Origin: Octopus vulgaris
Lineage: Eukaryota
DNA length: 64,000 bases
Direction: 5' to 3'
Assembly: GCA_951406725.2 (NCBI GenBank)
Contig: OX597823.1
Span: forward strand, 98,828,001-98,892,000
Notes under the pieces: generated by a model
Database searches by the model: none
Seen by the model: the letters and a program-made list of their open reading frames with translations, nothing else
What the model was told of the DNA's origin: nothing
Translations under genes and position numbers: made by a program
Part shown: piece after piece, positions 1 to 60,057 of the stretch
How the letters are laid out: each line of letters begins with the position of its first letter
Position numbering within the stretch: position 1 is the first letter of the stretch

Positions 1-76
1 TCAGAACGTAACGACAGACGAAATACCGTGAAGCATTTTGCCTGGCATGCTAACGTTTCTGCCAGCTCACTGCCTT
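1..76 (-). mobile_element. tRNA-derived SINE head (cut off by the window edge)
   Basis: Same sequence family as 8187-8417 and 43667-43888. Confidence 0.75.
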
Positions 77-6700: not shown

Positions 6701-9700
6701 CAACATTATTAGATATCTTTTGTGGAGTTTACTCTTTTACAAACGCTTGACACAGGTCACCATACTGAGAATGACCCATTCTGAGGTTTCTTCTTCTCTT
6801 TCCCCTACCAGCTTCAGAAGTTGAGGAAAAGTCCATTGACACTGCTCTACCTCCCTTATGCTATAAAAAGAAAAAAAACTTCCAAAAAAAAAACAATCCA
6901 ATCAAAAACAGAAAAATAGTTGACCTTTCAATTGAAAAACACAAAAATAGTCAAATTCACATTCTTCACAAAGTACTACTAAGGAAAGAAATCAAATAGA
7001 TATATTTTCTACTTATAAATAGACATATGGATACACAGTCAATACATATCCTTCATAATAAATAATTACAGTCGATATACTATAATTATATAGGTGTAAT
7101 ATTATTGTTATAATTACATAACAATCAAAATATGCTCATTCATATATCCTATAGATCACAAATAGATATACAAATAAGCTCAATGTATAATTCCAAATGT
7201 AAATACATCTAAACATACAGAAAATAATTCTGAAAATAACTAAAATTGATAAAAAATCAACAGGGAAGTCTAGAAAGATATACAAATAAACAACACTGCA
7301 TAGCAAGATCCAGGAAGGTGGTAATCCAAGTAGAGATACACTGGTAATCTGGGTAAAGTTCAGGGGTAAGGTGGACTTTGGGAGGCTGAAATAGTCCAAA
7401 AAGGGAGGAGCAGGTCAAAGAGAGGAAGAAGGTCAGTCTAGGCAGGATCATACTGGGGTGACCACAGAAGCATATATTATATATGGTGCAAAAATAAAAA
7501 AACACAAAAATGAGGTAAAAAAAGCAAACAACTGAAGTGTGTTAGGTTTATACTCAAGAAGATCTGAAGGAGAAGTCCTTTACATTTCAAGCATACACTC
7601 CTCTGCAGAAAGAATAAACATTTGTTCCTTTCTCTCCTCATCTATTTTTTCTGTGGAAGAGCATATGCTCAAAATGTAAAGGACATATCTTTCTATTTTT
7701 CTTGAGCATAAACCTAATGCACTCTGTTTTTTGTTTTACCTCGTTTTGTTTTTCATTTTTGCACCACTTAGAAAGAGATATCCTTCTTTGACAAACTGTA
7801 AAGAACTATAAGGAGAATTTTTAAGCATGTGAACATATGGTGGTGCTCCAGCATGACTGCAGCTGCATGGCTGAAATGAGTAAAAGAATAAAATTCACAG
7901 ATTTGGGGTATGTTATTAATCAGCTGTATTATTTGACTTGTACTTATTTTATCGATCTTGGAAAAATAAAAGGCAAGTTTGTTCCTGACAAGATCTAATC
8001 TCAAAACTTAAAGTAACATTACTAAATACAAATTTGCATATAGTCAGCCTATTTACCAATTCTTTCAATCCATTGTCCTTCAACAATAATAATCCTAATA
8101 TTCTTGTCCATAGTAAATATAATCTATTTTGGACAATGGCACGAATAATTTCTCACATGCCATAACACACAGCAAGAAAGAATAAATATTTCTTTATTGC
8201 CCACAGGGGGCTAAACACAGAGGGGACAAACAAGGACAGACAAAGAGATTAAGTCAATTACATCGACCCCAGTGCGAAACTGGTACTTATTTTATCAACC
8301 CCGAAAGGGTGAAAGGCAAAGTCGACCTCGGCGGAATTTGAACTCAGAACGTAACGACACGAAATACCGCTAAGCATTTCACCCGGCATGCTAACGTTTC
8401 TGCCAGCTCGCCGCCTTTCAAGAAAGAATATAGATGTCCTTATAATGTGGATCCTCACCCACTTGTATGTTATTGTCAGCACAATTAGGTTGTGGTGGCA
8501 TTCCGTATCTTACTATCTTTGACTCATCGATCGTGCTATCACTGATAGATCTGCAAGACAACGATTTTGAAACGTCTACCTTGCTGGTAACTCAAACTTG
8601 TATATATCACATAACTGACACTGACTCCAACTGAGAACTCGTACAATGACTCTACTACTACTGACTGTCTGACTTTATAGTAGCTCTTTCATATCACTTT
8701 GTCAGGTTTTTTTGGGGTGGGGAACAAGTAATTTTTATCTTACTTTATTCATCCCTCCTCTCTTTTTAGCGTTCTAACTTCATATTTTTTCTTCTTGGTG
8801 TCTATTTGTAAGAACTCTGTGTTCTTCCTGTTTCTTCCACTTGTAATGCTGTTAGTACCTGGAATGTGTCATACAGCCATTCCATACATTCCTCCGATCT
8901 GTCTGCTTAATTTTCTATGAATCTCTTCATCAATTGGTTTCTGTGTCTTTTTTCAATACTTTTTCTGCTTTTAATTCTGTACATCATTTTTCCTATGTAC
9001 TTTGTCATTTTCCCCTCTTCCCTGTATTGTTTTCTGTTCTTATTCCTCATGGACACCTAATCACTAACTTTTAAAAATTTTGGATTGTCTTTCCTGGTAC
9101 TTTGCCTTTCCTAACAGTTTATCAAAAACTGATTTCACCTTCCTCACAAACATCAGTTCAGCTGGTGAGCTTCCTCCTGGTGTACTGTAGTTCAGTGTCA
9201 CCCTGTATACCCTTAGAAATTCCTGCAGAGTGACTTCGTCTGTGGCTTCTTTGTTTGCTTTTCTCAGAGCTCTTTTAAAACTGTCGACAAAACACTCTGC
9301 CTGTCCACTTGATCTAGGATAGTAAGTCACTATCGTTTTATGTTCTTTCGTGAACAGTTTGCAGAATTTTCTAAATTCACTGGACACAAATTATCAGATA
9401 CAATCATGTCTGGAATGCCAAATCTTGTGAATAATTCATTCAAAAAAATATATTTAACGTTGCGGAGGTTGGTCTTTTGCATTTAACAATTTCTGGTCAT
9501 TTTGTGAAACTGTCAACTACTTCTATGCAGTAATAATCATTTAATGGACCTGCAAAATCGACGTGTTGTTTTGTCCATGGACTTTTTACTTCTGGCCAAG
9601 GCTCCCATTTTTGAGTAGGCAATTTCACTGCCAGAATATATCCTCTGCAACCTTTTACTGCGTTTTCAACTTCCTTGTCCATCTTCAGCCAATACACATA

Positions 9701-22790: not shown

Positions 22791-23051
22791 CCCAGAGCAA
22801 GTAAGACTGAGAGCTCTGAGAAGTACAGTAATGATAATAATTCTTTCTGCTATTGGTACAAGACCTGAAATTTTAGGGGTAGAGGCTAGTTGGTTACATT
22901 GATCACAGTGACATACTGTCATGACCCCATATGGATGAAATGCAAAGCTGATCTCAGCAGAATTTGAACACAGAATGTAAAGATGGACAAAATGCCGCAA
23001 AGTATCTTGTTTGGCATACTAATGATTCTGCCAGGTTACTGCCTTAATGAC

Positions 23052-24476: not shown

Positions 24477-25146
24477 ACTACCTTACTACCATGTCATAAT
24501 AATAATAATTGTTTCTAACATGGACACAAAGCCTAAAATTAAAGGAAGCAGGTTAGTCAATTATATTAACTTTAGCATGAAAATGGTTCTTTATTTTATC
24601 AATGCCTGAGAGATGACAGGTTAAGTTGATCTCATTGGGATTTGAACTTAGAACATAAAGAACTGCAACAATTACTGCAAAGCATTTTAGCCCAGTGTTC
24701 TAACAATACTGCCAATCAAGCAATAAAAAGGGTAAATGATAATTAAATTAATGATTTCAATTTTTGGCACAAGGCCAGCAATTTCAGGGAAGGGGATAAG
24801 TCAATTACATCAGCCCCAGTATTCTACTGGTACTTATTTTATCAGCCTCAAAAAGGATGAAAGGCAAAGGTAACCTCAGCAGATTTGAAATCAGAATGTA
24901 AAGACAGATGAAATGCCACTAAGCATTTTGTCCAGTGTTCTAACGAGTCTGCCAACTTGCCAATTTAAAGATTAAATTAGTAATAACAGTTTAATTAAAA
25001 CTTACCTATAGTAATTTTAATACAGTTGGTTGGCATTACATGATGATAAGCTGTTTAAGTGTTAGATAAAATAAGTTTATCAAGTAATAGTTGAAAAACA
25101 AACAAAACTGTTAAATTTATTATTTTTTCTCAAATTATAAAAACTA

Positions 25147-43800: not shown

Positions 43801-46800
43801 TCGACCTCGGCGGAATTTGAACTCAGAACGTAACAGCAGACGAAATACTGCTAAGCATTTTGCCTGGCGCACTAACGTTTCTGCCAGAATATAGTATATA
43901 GTGTAAACATGTAGTGTAAACATTCAAACATTATGACTATCTTTCCAAATCCTGCTGCATTTCACATAGAATATTTGGTTCTCCAAAGACATTTTGGTGT
44001 ATAAGTTAACCTACCTTTTCTGGGTGTGAAATTGAGTTGACTTCTTTAAACAGTTTGATGTCTCTGTAAATTCTAATAGATTCCTAATTTTAATTTCTTA
44101 CTCATTGATATATAGGGATTTACTCTTCATTGATAACATTTCAATAAAATATTCCATTTTTTTTATAGAGAAATTTGGTTTTGGTTACAGATTGCTGAAA
44201 ATCGTTATTTACAATGATAAGTGGACACATGAGGTGCATTTGTGATTACTTCAAAAGTCCAGTGTTTCTACAAAACTTGTGTATTCTCCACAATTTCTCT
44301 TGTGTAGCCCAGTTTGAAGACTGTTGCTGTAGGACCTAATTTCCAGTAAACTAAACTTAGAAAGAAAGCCAGAGGTACTTTGGCCAAATATGGAGTGTTG
44401 TGCCTGTGATCAGATAAGAAGAATCTACTAAGATGCAGGAAATGCTGTGTGGTAGGAAGCTTGCTTCCTAACCACATGGTCTTAAGTTCAATCCCACTAC
44501 ATGGTACTTTGGGCAATTATCTTGTTATAGCCCTGGGTCAATCAGTCTTGTGAGTAGATTTGGTTGGTGGAAACTGAAAAAAAGCCTGTCGTATACATAT
44601 GTGTGATCTTTGTGTTTGTCCCATTGCAATAGCGTAAGTGCCAAGCTTTAAGAAATTTAAATATAGGAGTTGATTTGTTCAATTAAACCCTTCAAGGTGG
44701 TGCCCCAGTATGGCTGCAGTCCAGTGAGTGAAACTAGTAGAAGATAAAAGGATATTCTTTATCCTCTGCAAATGTATCACTTTGAGAATCATAGACAGAC
44801 AAATGAATGCTTTTCTATATTTCTAAGATGAGGAATTATGTCCATTATTTACAATAGATGGATAGATGTCCTCACCTTGTTTGTTGTTACCAAATGAGCA
44901 CTCCATTAGTCAAGTAAAGGGTTGGGTTTGAAATTCCACCAGAACACCCGATGAAGGCTGGAGAGTACATCAGCCGAAATGCTGTGGTAACAACAAGCAA
45001 GGTGAGGACATCTATCCATCCATTGTAAATTATGTGAAGAATCCTTATTTGTCTATTCCTTTACTTTGGGGCAGGGGGTTTCAGTTACTGGACTGCAACC
45101 ACGTTGAAAAAACATTCTAATGTTGTTTACAAAAATTCTACAATGTCATTTTTAATTGTTAGACTAGATTTTTTTTTAAAAAGCCTTAAAAAGGAAAAGA
45201 AAGTTCTCAAAAGATCCAGCAAAACTCCAGAGGAATAAATAAGAAAAAGTGAATTTGTTTTGTCCTATACTTCAACTACTTGCTTTGAGAATAACTTCTT
45301 CCCACTACTATCAGAGGTCCTGAAAAATATGGGTCATGGGTTTTGTACTTTGTGTCATATAAACCCCTTGGAAATTCAGATAAGCTCACATCTTATGTGC
45401 CCATTGGTTCAAAGTAGACTTTAGACAGAGTAAGAAGGGCGATGTCAGTCTGTTGCTCATCTCACCAGCTGCTGCAAGACATCATTTTCAGTCAGGTGGA
45501 CCAACATGAAAGAAATTGCCTGGCTCAAGGAATCAATACATCATTCAGTTTGAGAATCAAACCTAGAATCTAAGATCATCAACTCCACTCTAACCTCTTG
45601 ATCACAGACCTTCTCTCCTCCACTCTAACCACTTCATCACAGACCTTCTCTCCTCCACTCTAACCACTTCATCACAGACCTTCTCTCCTCCACTCTAATA
45701 ACCACTTCATCACAGACCTTCTCTCCTCCACTCTAACCACTTCATCACAGACCTTCTCTCCTCCACTCTAACCACTTCATCACAGACCTTCTCTCCTCCC
45801 CTCTAACCACTTGATCACAGACCTTCTCTCCTCCACTCTAACCACTTCATCACAGACCTTCTCTCCTCCACTCTAACCACTTCATAACAGACCTTCTCTC
45901 CTCCACTCTAACCACTTCATCACAGACCTTCTCTCCTCCACTCTAACCACTTCATTACAGACCTTCTCTCCTCCACTCTAACCACTTCATCACAGACCTT
46001 CTCTCCTCCACTCTAACCACTTCATCACAGACCTTCTCTCCTCCACTCTAACCACTTCATCACAGACCTTCTCTCCTCCTCTCTAACCACTTCATCACAG
46101 ACCTTCTCTCCTCCACTCTAACCACTTCATCACAGACCTTCTCTCCTCCACTCTAACCACTTCATCACAGACCTTCTCTCCTCCACTCTAACCACTTCAT
46201 CACAGACCTTCTCTCCTCCACTCTAACCACTTCATCACAGACCTTCTCTCCTCCACTCTAACCACTTCATCACAGACCTTCTCTCCTCCCCTCTAACCAC
46301 TTCATCACAGACCTTCTCTCCTCCCCTCTAACCACTTCATCACAGACCTTCTTTCCTCCCCTCTAACCACTTCATCACAGACCTTCTCTCCTCCACTCTA
46401 ACCACTTCATCACAGACCTTCTCTCCTCCACTCTAACCACTTCATCACAGACCTTCTCTCCTCCACTCTAACCACTTCATCACAGACCTTCTCTCCTCCC
46501 CTCTAACCACTTCATCACAGACCTTCTCTCCTCCCCTCTAACCACTTCATCACAGACCTTCTCTCCTCCACTCTAACCACTTCATCACAGACCTTCTCTC
46601 CTCCACTCTAACCACTTCATCACAGACCTTCTCTCCTCCCCTCTATCAAAGCATTATGAAAATAACAACCAACTCTTAATAAATTATATTTTCCTTCTTT
46701 TCAGCATCATAGATGAATCACCAAGATGGTTAATTTCCAATAGTAAATTTGAGGAGGCAAAAGATATTTTTGAAAAGATTGCCAAAAGAAATAAGGCTGT

Positions 46801-47607
46801 ATTTACTCCTTCTTCCTTGCAGCAAAGTCAGGAAACAACATCTCAAACCACAGACCAAACAAAACCAACTCAAAAAGTCAGTCTTTTTCATTTGTTCAAA
46901 TCAAGAATTTTATTAATACGATGTGCAATAATTTCCTTCAACTGGTAAGTAATATTTTATTAAATTTTAAGTTTGAATTCAAGCTGAAACTTTACTAATT
47001 TTAACATTCTGTCAACCAGTGAGATATCTCTAACTTTAGACAGATTAGAAATTTCTCTTTATTTCTTGATTCTATAAAGGCAATAAGACTGGTAATCTCA
47101 TGATTACCAGTCATGATCATAAGATCATGGGTTCAATTCCTGTAAATGGAATTTGCAGATTCTCTGTTTATTTGAAGCAAGTTTCATAAAAGGATATTCT
47201 CCTAATGCAACTTTCAGAAACTGTCAGTAGAATTACTTTCCAAAGTAAATATGTGGAGCATCTTATCCTAACAGACCAAAATGCATATATATATACATAG
47301 GGGGTGGGGAGTAAGAAAAATCAACAAAATTGCACGTTGTAAATAAAAAAAGTGGAGGCTTTTTATGAAAGGTAACGACAGATATATACAATTAGATGAA
47401 CTGAGGTAAGAATAAAAGTAATAAAAGTCATAAAAGTCATTTATTATGAAATTATTAAAGAGATTCAAGCATACCGCAGTTTCGTAAGATACTATTCATT
47501 GCTTTTTACTTTTTTTATTTACAATGTGCATTTTCGTTGATTTTTCTTACTTTCCCCTTACATTTCCACGTGTAGTTTCTATTTTTTTTTTTGTAACATA
47601 TTTCTAT

Positions 47608-47645
<38 letters not shown>

Positions 47646-50600
47646 TAAACATGATTTACAAGTGTACGTGTGAATGTTTATATTCTGCATCATCAAATGA
47701 AAGCATAGAGCAAAAGCATGGTGACTTTGAATTGACATTTCCTGTCGACAAATCGTCCTCTATCTCTGTTTTCAAAGACAAATGGAATTAATGGAATAAA
47801 AAATAAACAGTTCCTTATTTAAAATAAGGCAAGGATTAGACACATGAAAGGTATCTAGCTTTAAAACAATGATTCAATAATAAATACTCAGCTAACCCAT
47901 GCTCACATGGAAAACAAACATAAAACAAATGGACTAATGAATTACACTTAAAGATGATTAGAGAATACGTGTACTTATTGCATCCATTTGCTATAAACAG
48001 GAATATTTTTCTAGTTAATATTTTAGTTTCTCATCATTTACAATTATATTTTGTTTTTCGGTTTTGTATCAAAAGTTGAAGAATATATTGAACTAGTTCA
48101 TTTTGCTTCTCTTTTACAGGATGGTTGTGAACATGGTTTTTTTTGGACTCCTCTTTGGTGTAGGAGAACTTGGCTTAAACATATATTTCAGTACATTTCT
48201 TTTTGCTGCTGTGGAGTTTCCAGCCTACATTTTCCTTTATTTCACTTTGGACAGATGGGGAAGGAAACCTCTTTATTGTTCATTAATCTTATTATGTGGA
48301 GTGGCATGTGCTTCATCATCATTTGTGTATGTTTGGGGAAAAGGTTTGTACTAAGTTTTTGCATCTGGTTTGCTAGATTCTTTGTGTGAATTCGTGTGTT
48401 GAAACAAATTTTATTGTGTCTAGAGAGAGTCATTATGCCAATATTATTAACACGCAGACTGGTTCAATTCTACTCCTTTATTATTAGTCAGTAGGTTAAA
48501 TATTAACTAACCAGTTAACTTATAATAGAGGAGTGGAAATGAACCTGTGCATGTGTTAATAATATTGGTACAATGACTCTCCCTAGACACAACAAAGTTT
48601 GTACTAAGCTTACACAGTTTAGCTTGTTTTGCAACCACATAGTTTCCAGGTTCAGTCTCACTGTGTGGCACCTTGAACTTTTGGACATATCCAAGTCAGA
48701 TTTGAAATGAAATGTGAAATATCTTCAGATCACTACGGGTTACAGGTTTTAGTTGTTACATTTCAGATTTGTTTGGTCTGACCATATTTCTGGCATTAAT
48801 AGGAAAATTTAGTGTCTCTGGAGCATCCACTGTTATTAGTAACATAGCATCAGAACTACTGCCCACGGTCATACGCAATACTGCTTTTGGTTTATGTTCC
48901 TGTCTTGGAAGACTGGGTGGAATGTCAGCCCCTTACATTACCCTCTTGGTAAGAAAGTTTTACGTGTTTTTTTGTTTGTTTTTTTATATATCACCCAAAT
49001 GAGTCTCTCTCCCCTGCAACTCAGTTTCCTAATTCCCTTCCCTCCACCCATTCACTGCATTCCCCACCCCATTATCTCCCACTTTCCTTTTGTACTGTCA
49101 AGAACTTACCTACCCACTCACCCTATCCAGTCCTCTGTACCACTTCACTCATATATACACCTCTGTAACTTGAGGCTGCACCCCAACACATCTTTACCAT
49201 CTCTCTCTCTCTCTCTCCTTTCCCATCCAATTTCATTGCTGTCAACCACCCGAATACTACACATCCCCTTACATTTTTTTTGTCACCCTTGGGGGTCATA
49301 AGAGATATTATACAGCCTGTATCCATGAGGGCTTTGAACGCCTTCCCCCAACCAGGATTTCAACAGGTACCTAAGATAATTAGCAAAGTATGGTACATGC
49401 TACGAAATCACTCACAAATGGCAGTTAGTTGTATTTTATTGTACTGCACTGTTTGTTTTGATCTCAGTTGTAAGAATTACACTTTTTTTTTAAAATCTTT
49501 TAGTCAAGGGTGTAGGTAATGCCCATGACCCATCATAGGGCCTCCAAACTAGAGGCACATGGCTTAGTGGTTAGGGTGTTGGACGCATGATCATAAGATT
49601 GTAGTTTTGATTCCTGAACCGAGTGACATGTTGTTCTTTGATCATTCCTTGATTGTTCTTGAGCAAAACACTTCATTTCATATTCCTCTAGTCCACTCAG
49701 CTGGCAAAAATGAGTGACCCCACGATGGTCAGCTTCCTAAGTCCAGAAGGGGATATCTGCACCACAGAAACTGGGAAACTGGCCCTTATCAGTCTAAATG
49801 ACTCAAGAAGGATCTTTACCTTTCAAAGTCTCTAAACTAGAGAAGCATGGAAGGAATGCATTCTCAAACTAGAAACTTGACCTGAATGCTTGCAAAAGAG
49901 TTAAGAGATAAGAGCCGGGTTGTGTTGTTAAACCAGGTGATGGGTTATGTGTGCTACCAACCTTATTTTACTGGTGACCTTAAGAAAGTTCAATACCCTG
50001 TTATTCCCACCATTAAGATTCTTAAATTTTGTCTTCCTTCTGATCTCGTCATTGGGAAACTGAATCCTCCATCCATTTGAATCTAACTTTCAGCTAAGGA
50101 ACTAGTATTTTGAAGTCAACAGAAACTGATGCAAACATAAGCATTTCATTCCTATAAAATATATTCTATTTCAGAGCAATTACATTCCTACTAAATTTGG
50201 TAAAAGTTTGCCACTTATTCTCTTTGGAGTAGCTGCTTTAATAGCAGGATTTCTTTCACTTGCTCTGCCTGAGACTCTAGGTGAAAATTTACCAGACACA
50301 ATTGAAGATGGAGAAAAATTTGGAAGGTAATTATAACGACAGGTAATACTGAAATCATCATCATCATCGTTTTTAGGCCTGCTTTTTCACACCGAGTTAC
50401 ACATGATGTTTTCGAGACAGTGTTTCCAGCCATGTGCTCCTTCTGATATCAACCCTTTTACTTGCTTTTCACAATACAGAGATATGTTACTTACTCTGTA
50501 CATCAAAATGCACAGAGTTTAACAAGTAATACTGAAAAATCTATTTTAAATTACAAAAATAAATTGTGAAAAATTTTATTTCATATTTCCAGTTTATGTG

Positions 50601-51650: not shown

Positions 51651-54600
51651 TATATAGATAAGAAAGTTTGTTTGGTAAAGCACGTGGGTGAATATATAAG
51701 AAAATAGTAAAGTGTGAAAAAACGACAGAAGGCTTAAATGTTAAAAAATATATATATTTGTGTCAAAATGTCTGGAGAATATTGGAAAAATTTTTTTCCC
51801 TTTCCTTAAAATGACATAATTTTAAAATTTTTAAAGAAATTACCGGTTTCGCGTGTAGCTTTTCAAATTTCTTGTGACGTTATGTTTATATTGCATGGAA
51901 TTATCGTTGTTTTTATTTCCAGGAGATTTCTAAATAAGGGGAGGTAGTGAGTGATTTTTTCCGGTGTAGGGGAGATAATCGCTTAAAAATTTTTTTTCCT
52001 TTTTCCTTGTTAATTTCTCTGTGTCAGTATGTTCGGATGGTTGAGTCTGGGTTTGTACTTTTCAATGAAGAATGTTTCCTTGTTCAGTCTCATTTGTGTT
52101 GATGATCCGAAAGCACATTGGTAAAATGGGAAGATTAAAAATTGTGGCAGTAGTTGCTTTGCGCATTTCTCAATGTGCTCACTAAAAGGTATCATTCTAT
52201 ATTCTGGGAATGCAATCTGTTGTCGATGCAGTGTGCATCTGCGCCTGAGTGATAGTCCCGTGGAACCCACGTAGTCTTGGTGGCAGCCCGAGCATTTAAT
52301 AACATAAATTATGTTTTCAGAGGCACAAGTAAAGTTAGATTTGATCTTAAATTTCTGTCCCTCTTTAAAGAAGAATTCTGATCCTTCCAATAGGTTAGGA
52401 CATGTTGCACAGTTCGATCTACCACATTTTTTTACTTTTGCATCCGTAATTTTAGAAGACAATTTTGCCTTTGTGAGAATCTTTTTAAGTGATTTAGGCT
52501 GTTTGTAGTAATTAAAAAAATTAACCTTAAAATAGAAACAGACATTTTTTACAAAGCCACAGACGCCAAACAATACCTTCTTTTTAATTCATGCCACCCA
52601 AGACACACTAAAACAAACATCCCCTTCAACCTTGCAAGAAGGATATGCACAATAGTGTCAGAACAAAATACCAGGAACTTTAGACTGCAAGAACTCAAAA
52701 ACACCCTAATTGACAGACATTACCCAGCTCAACTCATAGAGGATGGGATCAGACGTGCAACAGAAATCAACATAGAAACTTTAAGAAAAGTTCAACACAA
52801 CAACACACCTTCCCCGAAAATACTACCTTACATATCTACATACAACCCCAGAAACAAAGAAGCCTTCACCATCATCACCCAGAATTTACCAATACTTCAT
52901 AAAAACCCAAAATTAAAGGAAATTCTAAACATACACCAAATCATTAAAAGCTACAAACAGCCTAAATCACTTAAAAAGATTCTCACAAAGGCAAAATTGT
53001 CTTCTAAAATTACGGATGCAAAAGTAAAAAAATGTGGTAGATCGAACTGTGCAACATGTCCTAACCTATTGGAAGGATCAGAATTCTTCTTTAAAGAGGG
53101 ACAGAAATTTAAGATCAAATCTAACTTTACTTGTGCCTCTGAAAACATAATTTATGTTATTAAATGCTCGGGCTGCCACCAAGACTACGTGGGTTCCACG
53201 GGACTATCACTCAGGCGCAGATGCACACTGCATCGACAACAGATTGCATTCCCAGAATATAGAATGATACCTTTTAGTGAGCACATTGAGAAATGCGCAA
53301 AGCAACTACTGCCACAATTTTTAATCTTCCCATTTTACCAATGTGCTTTCGGATCATCAACACAAATGAGACTGAACAAGGAAACATTCTTCATTGAAAA
53401 GTACAAACCCAGACTCAACCATCCGAACATACTGACACAGAGAAATTAACAAGGAAAAAGGAAAAAAAATTTTTAAGCGATTATCTCCCCTACACCGGAA
53501 AAAATCACTCACTACCCTTATTTAGAAATCTCCTGGAAATAAAAACAACGATAATTCCATGCAATATAAACATAACGTCACAAGAAATTTGAAAAGCTAC
53601 ACGCGAAACCGGTAATTTCTTTAAAAATTTTAAAATTATGTCATTTTAAGGAAAGGGAAAAAAATTTTTCCAATATTCTCCAGACATTTTGACACAAATA
53701 TATATATTTTTTAACATTTAAGCCTTCTGTCGTTTTTTCACACTTTACTATTTTCTTATATATATATATATATATATATATACGTTTATATATTTGTTGT
53801 GCAAGATTTATTATGAGAAGTCGTGTGTTGAAACATATTGTTATATTTCGGAACGGTCATTTTGCCAGTTTAGCCAATAAAAACACATGCACTATATATT
53901 TGGTGTTATTTTGCTTCAGTGTTATTTATTTTTTACTTTAAAGAAGAAAGCAAAGGACCACTGATGCGGTCACAGGAGTGGGACGAAAGAACTCTGGCTG
54001 AAATAAGATTAAGATTAATGTAAAAAATAAATAATACTGAAGCAAAATAACACCAAATATATAGTGAGTGTGTTTTTATCGGCTAAACTGGCAAAATGAC
54101 CATTCCGAAATATAACAATATATATATATATATATCATCATCATCGTTTAGCGTCCGCTTTCCATGCTAGTTCCATGGACGGTCCAACTGGGGTTTGGGA
54201 AGCCAGAAGGCTGTACCAGGCCCAGTTTCATCTGGCAATGTTTCTACGGCTGGATGCCCTTCATAACGCCAACCACTCCATGAGTGTAGTGGGTGCATTT
54301 TATGTGCCACCAGCACAGGTGCCAGACGAGGCTGGCAAACGGCCATGATCGGAAGGTGCTTTCTACGTGCCACCAGCACGGAGGCAAGGTGAGGCTGGCA
54401 ACGGCCACGATCGGATGGTGCTTTTTACGTGCCACCGGCACAGAGGCCAGTCGGGGTGGCACTGGCAATGGCCACGTTCGGATGGTTCTCTTATGCGCCA
54501 CCAGCACTAGTATCACAGCTACAATTACCATTGATGTTGATCAATTTCGATTTTGATTTTCACTTGCCTCAACAGGTCTTAACAAGTAGAGTTTCATGTC

Positions 54601-58151: not shown

Positions 58152-59197
58152 ATATATGTATATGTATATATGTATATATATATAATTGTTACCGCCATAT
58201 TAATATGACAGTCTTATATATGTAAGACTAAAAGCTGTCGCTGATTAGCTCCATGAGGGCATCGCCTTAAGATAGCTATTTGACACACAAACTGTGTCCA
58301 TTATAACCTTCGAACAAGGGAGGTCAGCCGCTTCACACTGCCAGTCAGACAGTTACAGATGCGTTTCAGGGTATTTGCCCTTTGTCAATGTAACGTAGTC
58401 AGACCCAGCAGGTGTCGCCACTGATCGTCTCTGTTCGAAGGTTTTATTTCGGTGGAAGGTTTTATTTACCGAGTTTCGGTGGAATACATCCACTTGTTTT
58501 CAATAATAGAAATATTAAAATTACTAAGTCTCTCTAAAAGAGATTACGGCAGCGTTACTGGAAATTAATTGTTATCGCCATATTAGTCTTACATATATAA
58601 GACTGCCATATTAATATGGCGATAACAATTAATTTCCAGTAACGCTGCCGTAATCTCTTTTAGAGAGACTTAGTAATTTTAATATTTCTATTATTGAAAA
58701 CAAGTGGATGTATTCCACCGAAACTCGGTAAATAAAACCTTCGAACAGAGATGATCAGTGGCGACACCTGCTCGGTCTGACTATGTTACATTGACAAAGG
58801 GCAAATACCCTGAAACGCGTCTGTAACTGTCTGACTGGCAGTGTGAAGCGGCTGACCTCCCTTGTTCGAAGGTTATAATGGACACAGTTTGTGTGTCAAA
58901 TAGCTATCTTAAGGCGATGCCCTCATGGAGCTAATCAGCGACAGCTTTTAGTCTTACATATATAAGACTGCCATATTAATATATATATATATATATATAT
59001 AATGTGTATGTATGTAATACATAAAATATCAGAACTGAGATACTATACATATGTATGTATAATATAATGCATATTAAATATTTTAACTAAATTCTAATCC
59101 TTTTCTATTATTTCTTTCTTTTAACAGGAAGGAAAAAGACAATGCTACCAAAGAAAATATTGCGATAATAACTTTTAAAAAATATGAAAGCATGTAA
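25147..59197 (+). CDS. SLC22-family transporter gene B, complete, 10 exons, 550 aa; exons 25147-25289, 30992-31205, 34014-34117, 38516-38670, 42979-43147, 46705-46944, 48120-48343, 48767-48948, 50175-50326, 59128-59197
   Basis: ATG start [17 protein letters not shown]; Cys- and N-glycosylation-site-bearing extracellular loop (CAIP..NDT..C..C..WVYD..C); [33 protein letters not shown] motifs. All introns are GT-AG; exon lengths sum to 1653 nt in frame. Confidence 0.94.
26868..27112. repeat. Zero-spacer palindromic foldback element
   Basis: Centre AAAATTTTCGAAAATTTT (26985/26986), arms ~115 bp; single arm also present at ~20105-20230. Confidence 0.8.
27905..28660 (-). mobile_element. R4/Dong-like LINE 5' ORF fragment
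   Basis: ORF 27942..28454 (CY..SEP..R.YRKQM...W...LVDQANAI) resembles the N-terminus of RLE LINE proteins. Confidence 0.55.
28850..29200 (-). mobile_element. LINE (RTE-X-like) 3' ORF fragment
   Basis: [11 protein letters not shown]...LLLWKP motif. Confidence 0.6.
29210..30660 (-). mobile_element. L1/Tx1-like LINE ORF1 relic with (ACC/AAC)n low-complexity tract
   Basis: [12 protein letters not shown]...H...C knuckle remnant and Thr-rich N-terminus; clade assignment uncertain. Confidence 0.45.
30992..31205 (+). CDS. SLC22 gene B exon 2 ([10 protein letters not shown]...CHAWVYDKS...)
   Basis: Extracellular-loop Cys residues and WVYD motif; cag/gtaagt. Confidence 0.92.
34014..34117 (+). CDS. 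SLC22 gene B exon 3 (104 nt; LNFVCHR...[10 protein letters not shown])
   Basis: cag/gtaagt; VC and G...G..SD motifs. Confidence 0.92.
34315..34698 (-). mobile_element. tRNA-derived SINE (same family as 23159-23570)
   Basis: Reverse-complement match along its whole length. Confidence 0.85.
36915..37745 (-). mobile_element. R4/Dong-like LINE 3' fragment (zinc knuckle + REL endonuclease), flanked by TAT/TAA repeats
   Basis: [30 protein letters not shown]; homologous to 22240-22790. Confidence 0.8.
38516..38670 (+). CDS. SLC22 gene B exon 4 (155 nt; KGRKLS...LRFFAG)
   Basis: cag/gtgagt; paralogous to 151-305. Confidence 0.92.
38680..39430 (+). mobile_element. Internally deleted Penelope-like element relic
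   Basis: Asn-rich ORF ending KPKVINLS (resembles the pre-RT motif of Penelope ORFs), followed by a decayed hammerhead at 39346-39380 and a TA-rich tail. Confidence 0.5.
39475..40817 (+). mobile_element. RTE-LINE, 5'-truncated copy
   Basis: [13 protein letters not shown]...GRGRPRKTW; 3' UTR and (TGA)n tail; close match to 54135-55635. Confidence 0.92.
41171..41790. repeat. Foldback element; left arm holds a hammerhead-like motif (41204-41289, -)
   Basis: Arms ~41171-41325 and ~41645-41790 are inverted; reverse complement TGCAG-CTGAAGA-TAGCTC...GAGCCA ctt-GAAA-AGGTCG-TA-CTGCA. Confidence 0.7.
42979..43147 (+). CDS. SLC22 gene B exon 5 (169 nt; IEIVPHSHR...IRDWHLL)
   Basis: cag/gtaagt; RDW motif. 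Confidence 0.92.
43667..43888 (-). mobile_element. tRNA-derived SINE (Meta-core-like)
   Basis: Near-identical to 8187-8417. Confidence 0.85.
44845..45032. repeat. Short foldback element with a decayed hammerhead in its spacer (44943-44988, +)
   Basis: Arms ATTTACAATAGATGGATAGATGTCCTCACCTTG / CAAGGTGAGGACATCTATCCATCCATTGTAAAT; AACAC-CCGATGA-A-GGCTG..CAGCC-GAAA-TG-CT-GTGGT. Confidence 0.65.
45583..46644. repeat. 35-bp minisatellite, ~30 copies (CCACTCTAACCACTTCATCACAGACCTTCTCTCCT)
   Basis: Direct tandem repeat with no spacers; period 35 confirmed by recurrence every 420 nt (12 units). Confidence 0.97.
46705..46944 (+). CDS. SLC22 gene B exon 6 (240 nt; IIDESPRWL...SFNW)
   Basis: cag/gtaagt; ESPRWL motif. 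Confidence 0.93.
47467..47504 (-). ncRNA. Minimal type I hammerhead motif with A3-U8 core pair
   Basis: Reverse complement: AAGCA-ATGAATA-GTA tct TAC-GAAA-CTGCGG-TA-TGCTT. Confidence 0.65.
48120..48343 (+). CDS. SLC22 gene B exon 7 (224 nt; [10 protein letters not shown]...VEFPAY...DRWGRK)
   Basis: cag/gtttgt; DRxGRK motif. Confidence 0.92.
48356..48596. mobile_element. Foldback element inserted at the exon 7 splice donor, with a 12-bp duplication
   Basis: Arms ~48410-48500 and ~48505-48595 are inverted; GTTTGTACTAAG repeated at 48344-48355 and 48597-48608. Confidence 0.6.
48767..48948 (+). CDS. SLC22 gene B exon 8 (182 nt; GKF...ELLPTVIRN...[10 protein letters not shown])
   Basis: cag/gtaaga; ELxPT..RN motif. 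Confidence 0.93.
50175..50326 (+). CDS. SLC22 gene B exon 9 (152 nt; LPLILFG...[17 protein letters not shown])
   Basis: cag/gtaatt; LPET/LPDT motif. Confidence 0.92.
51834..51873 (-). ncRNA. Identical hammerhead copy in the inverted Penelope arm
   Basis: Exact reverse complement of 53582-53621. Confidence 0.8.
52511..53449 (+). CDS. Penelope RT thumb + GIY-YIG endonuclease, uninterrupted partial ORF with no native start
   Basis: [24 protein letters not shown] (RT C-terminus); CxxxxCxxC linker; [19 protein letters not shown]...R...H...H...E...KPRLN (GIY-YIG). Confidence 0.88.
   Translation: MKKINLKIETDIFYKATDAKQYLLFNSCHPRHTKTNIPFNLARRICTIVSEQNTRNFRLQELKNTLIDRHYPAQLIEDGIRRATEINIETLRKVQHNNTPSPKILPYISTYNPRNKEAFTIITQNLPILHKNPKLKEILNIHQIIKSYKQPKSLKKILTKAKLSSKITDAKVKKCGRSNCATCPNLLEGSEFFFKEGQKFKIKSNFTCASENIIYVIKCSGCHQDYVGSTGLSLRRRCTLHRQQIAFPEYRMIPFSEHIEKCAKQLLPQFLIFPFYQCAFGSSTQMRLNKETFFIEKYKPRLNHPNILTQRN
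53582..53621 (+). ncRNA. Minimal type I hammerhead ribozyme (U3-A8) in the Penelope terminal repeat
   Basis: AAGAAAT-TTGAAAA-GC tacac GC-GAAA-CCGG-TA-ATTTCTT; 7-bp stem I, palindromic stem III, predicted cut after A53614. Confidence 0.8.
53820..54122. repeat. Foldback element; spacer holds a degenerate hammerhead-like motif (53958-53997)
   Basis: Arms ~53835-53936 and ~54020-54122 are inverted; CCA-CTGATGC-G-GTCACA ggag TGGGAC-GAAA-GAAC-TC-TGG. Confidence 0.65.
54135..57750 (-). mobile_element. RTE-clade LINE, near full length with internal deletions (APE endonuclease + RT)
   Basis: ORF 56671..57543: [29 protein letters not shown] (APE). ORF 54874..55761: GVHQ.S.LSPLLF, YADD (RT). (ATG)n tail. 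Confidence 0.95.
58352..58394 (-). ncRNA. Inverted hammerhead copy (stem III CGCG>CGCA)
   Basis: Reverse complement equals 58785-58827 except for one G>A change. Confidence 0.72.
58785..58827 (+). ncRNA. Minimal type I hammerhead ribozyme (U3-A8), GUC cleavage site
   Basis: GTTACA-TTGACAA-AGGG caaata CCCT-GAAA-CGCG-TC-TGTAAC; predicted cut after C58821. Confidence 0.82.
59128..59197 (+). CDS. SLC22 gene B terminal coding exon ([22 protein letters not shown])
   Basis: Strong polypyrimidine tract + cag, phase-compatible, TAA stop, Lys-rich start like gene A's last exon. Confidence 0.65.
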
Positions 59198-60057
59198 AAA
59201 CACACTTTCTTGTTTTGAAGAAAAAGAAAGGCAAAAAGAAAAAAGATGGGTTAAATCAGGAAGATAAATTGAAAGATAGATTAAGATTACAACTATAATG
59301 CAAAAGAAAGATTATCAATTTGGCAAAATACATACATATACATATATATGTCGTGTAATATTTCATTATTGATGAACAAAAAATAGTACTCCATCCAATG
59401 AGAGAGAAATATCATTTAATATGTAGAGAATTTAAATGTGAGCTACCATTAGTTTCATGCCTCAGATAACACAATGGTTAATCAAGCGTGCATAGTGTGC
59501 CATGCATTTTTAGGCAATCATTCACACTCAAAGTACAACATAGCTTTAAGAGCAGCCATTTTGCATTTTGAGTCTGAGTGATTACCTGAAAATACAGAGT
59601 GTGCTATACAAGCTTGTTCAGCCATTGTATTATCAGAGGTGGGAAATTAATAGCAGCCCACACTTAAAGCCTGTGTATATTAAATAGCACACACACACAC
59701 ACATGCATGCATGCGTATAGGTGTGCAAAGAGTGATGCAAACAAGGAAACAGAACTCAAAACATGAGTATACACATATTGTATTTATTATTAATAATTAA
59801 CAGACATTACAGAATGACTCTTGGACAGAGATTTATTCGGTAATCTCTGCCAATGAATAAATAATCCTTTAGGCACAAAGTCTGACTTGGGGGGGGGGGG
59901 GCTCATTAATTACATCAGCCTTAGTTCTTGACTGCTACTTACTCAGAATGTAAAGTTGGATGAAATTCCACTAAGCATTTTGCCCAGTGGGCTAATGAGT
60001 CTTCCAATTTGCATCATTATTATTATTATTATTACTACTACTACTACTATTACTATA

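Follow-up and report, generated by a model that had tools for sequence, protein, structure and literature searches.

Hammerhead motifs with a purine at position 3 and a covarying 3-8 pair in Neptune-like Penelope-like elements of Octopus vulgaris

A 38-nt sequence on the minus strand of a 64,000-nt stretch of the Octopus vulgaris genome (contig OX597823.1, positions 98,828,001 to 98,892,000; hereafter the window) has the shape of a minimal hammerhead ribozyme, with A and U at core positions 3 and 8 where the consensus has C and G. Is it a ribozyme spoiled by mutation, one recruited by the host gene in whose intron it lies, or a member of a class of hammerheads that carries another 3-8 pair by descent? 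The motif and its surroundings comprise the following features.

47467..47504, minus strand: type I minimal hammerhead with an A3-U8 core (A3 at 47499, U8 at 47494, A17 at 47472) and helix III CUGCGG
47310..47505, minus strand: 5'-truncated 3' end (pLTR region) of a Neptune-like Penelope-like element (PLE), element positions -6 to +188 relative to A3, 93% identical to locus L031
47505..47617, plus strand: inverted second arm of the same insertion, element positions +142 to +253, with an extra tail of about 60 nt and no ribozyme
47284..47298, strand not applicable: (TA)n-like target sequence at the 3' end of the main arm
47609..47643, strand not applicable: (TA)n/(TG)n microsatellite at the 3' end of the inverted arm
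46706..46944, plus strand: upstream host exon with a Sugar_tr match, donor GT at 46945
48120..48345, plus strand: downstream host exon, matching no family, with the acceptor AG ending at 48119

Read on the minus strand from 47504 to 47467, the motif is AAGCA AUGAAUA GUAUCUUAC GAAA CUGCGG UA UGCUU. Stem I (5 bp) and stem II (3 bp with a 3-nt loop) are both fully paired, G10.1-C11.1 closes stem II, and the core is canonical at U4, G5, A6, A9, G12, A13, A14, A15.1 and U16.1, with A as H17. The hammerhead shape claimed by a sequence-only reading of this DNA thus agrees with the letters in its sequence, its stems and its other core bases. The 3-8 pair is Watson-Crick (A-U) but not the consensus C3-G8, letters which in descriptors and Rfam models are a convention and not a catalytic need. 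The cleavage triplet is GUA, and cutting is predicted between 47472 and 47471. In the real window, 6 loose hits fit a type I descriptor that accepts any Watson-Crick pair at 3-8, whereas 60 windows resampled with a first-order Markov model averaged 0.37. Hits of the motif's quality (stem I of at least 5 bp, stem II of at least 3 bp) occurred at 0.033 per resampled window, and the strict form in none of the 60. Two of the loose hits, 12956(-) and 1280(+), have neither G10.1-C11.1 nor a palindrome and were put down to chance. Rfam scans returned no hammerhead hit at E<=1 over the whole window and none at E<=10 over a 141-nt stretch.

The sequence-only reading had proposed a collection of homologues as a check for family conservation. 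With positions 3 and 8 left free and at most three mismatches allowed elsewhere, all 27 close copies in the genome carry A3 and U8; the core was consequently inherited and is no private mutation of the window copy. No exact non-A3 copy of the window's subfamily was found. CCGCGG, correctly guessed to be the intact helix III, is the majority form among these 27, and the window copy departs from the search pattern only by a C-to-T change within it. An A3-U8 pattern with a 4-nt G/C helix III has 1,244 exact matches genome-wide, compared with 10 for a reversed-pattern control. Most of the A3-U8 matches listed belong to a second lineage with stem I AUAUC/GAUAU or UGUC/GACA, C17 and an endonuclease about 55-65% identical. 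The description of the core as rare is therefore wrong within this genome, which holds at least 1,244 exact A3-U8 matches; full-text searches, for which such short notations are poorly suited, returned no report of a natural A3-U8 or G3-C8 hammerhead.

What carries these motifs is apparent from the longer copies. Queried with 47250-47620, the genome gave 40 scored candidates, all of which match with 83-93% identity over the main arm. The parent open reading frame encodes a reverse transcriptase (RVT_1, E 2.5e-7) followed by a C-terminal GIY-YIG endonuclease (E 0.0026; 18.4 bits in a decayed copy, below the Pfam cut-off of 22.6), joined by a CX4CxxC linker (KCGRPNCGTC in L031); PF01541 was detected in 4 of 11 protein homologues, and one homologue is labelled Octopus bimaculoides. 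The hammerhead lies about 190-230 nt behind the endonuclease end, and the 3' ends of the element fall at two places, about +190 and about +252. Insertions that are 5'-truncated and inverted, a tail and a microsatellite target are all present, as in Neptune-type elements. The RT-EN layout is that of Neptune or Nematis, the CX2-5CxxC linker being common to both (PMC8557442). Judged by eye, the RT-EN spacing resembles the Neptune rows in Fig. S2 of that paper, which suggests a Neptune-like PLE as carrier. The window's family is old since its reading frames are frameshifted. A non-LTR retrozyme was considered and dismissed, as we found a single copy in an inverted insertion and no tandem hammerhead units; searches of viral and metagenome contigs yielded no relatives. 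This membership in a PLE had escaped the sequence-only reading, as had the G3-C8 sisters described below and the status of the window copy as a truncated relic.

The window copy lies, as had been stated, antisense within an intron: the GT-AG intron 46945-48119 (1,175 nt) splits a Trp codon of a plus-strand transporter gene, whose upstream exon (46706..46944) we take to be SLC22-like. The main arm of the insertion starts 6 nt before A3, and both arms end at (TA)n. The copy probably arose by 5' truncation and inversion during insertion into (TA)n, followed by the C-to-T change in helix III. Its intronic site, and a core left intact despite truncation, would fit a domesticated ribozyme that regulates the transporter gene of the host, for instance through cleavage of an antisense RNA. 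We find this scarcely credible, as the motif is a single antisense copy whose truncation reaches the edge of stem I and whose palindrome is damaged; its divergence equals that of other copies, truncation at the same place is common, and it misfolds both as a monomer (hammerhead fold at -0.6 versus a minimum of -5.7 kcal/mol) and as a dimer (double hammerhead at -13.1 versus -14.6 kcal/mol for an alternative, a gap of 1.5), its helix III duplex being weakened from -14.1 to -9.7. This 5'-truncated and inverted insertion stands alone, runs antisense to the host pre-mRNA and is damaged, and is therefore probably inert. Its intronic position looks incidental; as a single intronic copy it is a case of ordinary decay, unimportant in itself.

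Three other observations concern this neighbourhood. The insertion arms at 47310-47353 and 47508-47551 are 93% complementary over 44 nt, making a hairpin in the host pre-mRNA possible. A 35-nt minisatellite of about 27 units occupies window positions 45700-46645 in the intron upstream of exon 46706. A dispersed SINE-like repeat family is found at window positions 1-65, 8342-8406, 22970-23034, 24891-24955, 43823-43887 and 59943-60007.

The importance of the motif lies in its relatives. In subfamilies of the window's own lineage, with near-identical flanks, the 3-8 pair is G3-C8 (97 matches versus 4 for the reversed control). With positions 3 and 8 free, a hand count over the first 100 of 229 matches gave 53 A-U, 40 G-C, 2 A-C, 1 G-U, 2 G-G, 1 C-C and 1 U-C; were the two positions independent, about 24 A-C and 23 G-U would be expected where 2 and 1 were seen. 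A class of non-A3 motifs has 7,860 matches versus 118 for its control, those listed being mostly U3-A8. Additionally, a separate family devoid of open reading frames has 5,550 matches versus none for its control, with G-C in 94 of the first 100. Its G3-C8 copies (L323-L334, L076:1059, L118:1518) have an extra G after A9, a 5-bp stem II and an AUAU palindrome, begin about 20 nt upstream of the ribozyme and often show 5' inversion; no parent element was found for this family in 14 loci. C3-G8 is represented as well, both by L076 and by a 360-nt tandem array. Consequently, all four Watson-Crick 3-8 pairs occur in one genome, as A3-U8, G3-C8, U3-A8 and C3-G8 motifs were each found. The window itself holds U3-A8 motifs in two further features.

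51692..53763, strand not applicable: insertion, in inverted arrangement, of a young Neptune-like sister family, 4-6 kb from the motif, with U3-A8 hammerheads at 53582-53621 (plus) and 51834-51873 (minus) and an endonuclease 57-63% identical; it serves as a natural comparator
58197-58982: nested inverted repeat with another U3-A8 hammerhead at 58785-58827 on the plus strand (helix III CGCG) and a decayed copy in its second arm

The U3-A8 sister family is very young, its endonuclease being identical in all 150 scored copies and its reading frames about 811 aa long. In both hammerheads of 51692-53763, U3 could also pair with A17. Motifs related to 58785-58827 occur in tandem arrays of about 360 nt (G000:C1:8134351-8135463), and loci L073-L102 represent a U3-A8 family whose members, frequently arranged as inverted pairs, have a 3-bp stem I and CCGCGG as helix III; no endonuclease was found in the 6 loci checked. 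At G000:C1:20002278-20004542, seven C3-G8 hammerheads at a spacing of about 359 nt, on both strands, form a retrozyme-like tandem array. L177, an A3-U8 copy whose inverted partner is U3-A8, was disregarded: among about 7,900 copies, a double mutant of this kind has probably arisen by chance.

Such counts are not independent events, as the copies share ancestry and the 93 paired copies per 100 reflect few changes. In a DNA tree built with positions 3 and 8 masked, restricted to those 33 of 55 copies in which the upstream element extends over 200 nt or more, G3-C8 needs two to three changes, of which well-supported branches force only one A-U/G-C switch. In an endonuclease tree of 32 rows, the second A3-U8 lineage is sister to the U3-A8 lineage (SH-aLRT 98). 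Taken together, the trees indicate at least two independent compensatory changes in the Neptune-like clade, one A-U/G-C and one A-U/U-A. With few independent switches proven, one might argue that elements with no need of a ribozyme carry purine-3 cores along as degenerate hitch-hikers, which look paired through descent from few founders; the window's family is indeed old and broken (with the identities and frameshifts given above), and the youngest family is U3-A8. This explanation appears very unlikely to us. At least two double changes each gave a Watson-Crick pair, to which the separate 5,550-copy G3-C8 family is to be added, intermediates are rare (3 of 100), and stem I and the palindrome turn over with their pairing kept.

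The latter is seen in a set of 185 distinct copies, in which many loci stem from patterns fixing the 3-8 pair; its 3-8 tally is thereby biased and was not used as evidence on that pair. The first three pairs of stem I are paired in 171, 174 and 163 of these copies, respectively, each with three or four Watson-Crick types, pair 1 showing all four, and the palindromes of helix III alternate between CCGG, CCGCGG, CCAUGG and AUAU. Stem II has 2-3 bp and a variable loop, and no conserved contact between a stem I bulge and loop II was seen by eye. Where position 17 was free in the family patterns, G17 is avoided. U17 occurs in 6 of 80 A3 copies and C17 in none of 33 G3 copies; as a general rule, avoidance of pairing between bases 17 and 3 was rejected, since U3-A8 motifs break it with A17 in 25 of 65.

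A third branch of the window's lineage, with 298 matches, behaves differently. Among the 100 listed, A3 is present in 100 and U8 in 95, and A3-C8 in 4. The copies that spread in this branch have one more base, mostly U, within the G12-A13-A14 (GAAA) run; stem I has changed on both sides (L335-L344, L123-L131), and the forms of helix III include CCAAUUGG as well as some that are non-palindromic. Because of the extra base, the non-palindromic forms and the A3-C8 copies, we regard constraint as loose in this branch. The extra base would be either a tolerated variant like the U13a insertion (PMC3088659) or a sign of relaxed selection.

Folding supports a dimer in some copies. The double hammerhead is the co-folding minimum for the intact copies L023 (-17.5 kcal/mol) and L183 (-15.9 kcal/mol), although in only 2 of 7 motifs, the other 5 lying 0.4-4.8 kcal/mol above an alternative. 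The suggestion that a palindromic helix III points to dimers was borne out, the palindrome of the window copy itself being one change off. A survey of insertion 5' ends, covering two A3-U8 families with 30 copies each that were selected on their 3' part alone, revealed no peak at the predicted cut: per family, 2 of 30 copies fall within 5 nt of it, and one such end (L284) is ambiguous through microhomology with (TA)n. In vitro, cleavage is dispensable for insertion and uncut RNA serves as template (PMC11167929), with which the flat 5'-end profile agrees.

Hence the purine-3 motifs might keep their fold for a non-catalytic role, such as joining template RNAs into dimers, binding the protein of the element or halting reverse transcription, with little or no cleavage in vivo. 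The 5' ends bear no cleavage footprint and many copies begin just upstream of an uncut motif, one sub-lineage was amplified despite its disturbed GAAA run, cleavage mutants still insert in vitro (PMC11167929), and PMC4209133 likewise allows for roles beyond cleavage. We nevertheless judge this role unlikely: the pair that covaries is the one formed only in the active conformation (PMC3884650), and G is avoided at position 17 where that position is free. As a separate observation, 4 of 30 copies (L267, L272, L275 and L287) have their start precisely 10 nt ahead of A3, in three cases immediately following (TA)n, with microhomology or a stop at stem I as possible causes.

We therefore return to cleavage by active ancestors. 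Reportedly, Przybilski and Hammann found in 2007 that any Watson-Crick 3-8 pair kept cleavage in vitro, with a context-dependent preference for a pyrimidine at position 3. In the active core C3 and G8 pair, and only in the active conformation (PMC3884650). The double change C3G/G8C partly rescues the Anolis Poseidon ribozyme, which needs the element's protein (PMC11167929), and minimal PLE hammerheads cleave poorly in vitro (PMC4209133). Given that the dimer model fits, that C3 and G8 pair in the active core, that their swap partly rescues and that Watson-Crick pairs are said to be tolerated, we infer a dimeric, probably protein-assisted cleavage after GUA in active ancestors, which would have trimmed precursor transcripts. 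Two motifs, from tandem pLTRs or from two transcripts, would pair through the palindrome into a double hammerhead; A3-U8 would stand in for C3-G8, whose Watson-Crick pairing holds the 2'-OH of residue 8 in position while G12 acts as general base; and folding may be helped by the protein that the element encodes, as in Poseidon of Anolis. Selection would then have kept 3-8 pairing and not its letters. Taken as a whole, this reading seems to us quite probable: a minimal type I hammerhead, situated some 200 nt after the stop codon in a Neptune-like PLE, the ancestors of which cleaved after GUA as dimers and the window copy of which is inert. Of this, the carrier element, the place of the motif in it, the constancy of A3-U8 within the family, its exchange for G3-C8 and U3-A8 in sister families and the paired turnover of stem I and helix III were observed directly in the copies. 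Whether A3-U8 and G3-C8 hammerheads form a natural active class kept by selection in PLEs is, in our estimation, an even call.

Since the 3-8 base pair was swapped while staying paired, likely self-cleaving purine-3 RNAs are missed by searches for C3-G8: CUGANGA/UUGANAA descriptors and Rfam miss thousands of purine-3 motifs in this genome alone. If the class is real, ribozyme censuses are undercounts, some "hammerhead-less" elements may carry a hammerhead, and the sister subfamilies offer a natural test of why Penelope elements keep one. In PLEs the ribozyme was dispensable in vitro (PMC11167929); as the 3-8 pair is the hallmark of the active hammerhead fold, its in-step switching provides evolutionary evidence for selection on that fold in PLEs.

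The closest known systems are the PLE hammerheads of Cervera and De la Peña (2014, PMC4209133), which are likewise of type I, lie in the pLTR behind the RT-EN frame, have G10.1-C11.1 and a short palindromic helix III, are predicted to act as dimers (a model also found in PMC6765202) and occur mostly as solo truncated copies. The 56 representative motifs in Fig. S3 of that paper comprise 53 C3-G8, 3 U3-A8 and no purine-3 motif, whereas A3-U8 and G3-C8 are family-wide here; compared with those motifs, stem II has only 2-3 bp here and lineages I-III lack an extra base after A9. The small dimer-forming PLE variants of Lünse et al. (2016, as reviewed in PMC6765202) also share a short palindromic stem III. 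With the Neptune clade (Craig et al. 2021, PMC8557442), in which we place the carrier by eye from Fig. S2, our elements share an RT followed by GIY-YIG, a CX2-5CxxC linker, a hammerhead in the pLTR, inverted 5'-truncated tailed insertions and microsatellite targets; the core screened for in that work, CUGANGA, is unable to find motifs of the purine-3 type. Perreault et al. (2011, PMC3088659) give U3-A8 as the only natural 3-8 covariant. That core, known also from Schistosoma families (PMC4209133), is a compensatory 3-8 change as well and dominates the non-A3 matches listed here; in our purine-3 motifs purine and pyrimidine are swapped relative to it, and this genome has all four pairs. The engineered 3-8 swaps of PMC11167929 are laboratory mutants with part of their activity back, whereas those described here are natural amplified families. 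Set beside these systems, the finding is a purine-3 class spread through a whole genome, in which the 3-8 pair covaries naturally between sisters that are otherwise nearly identical.
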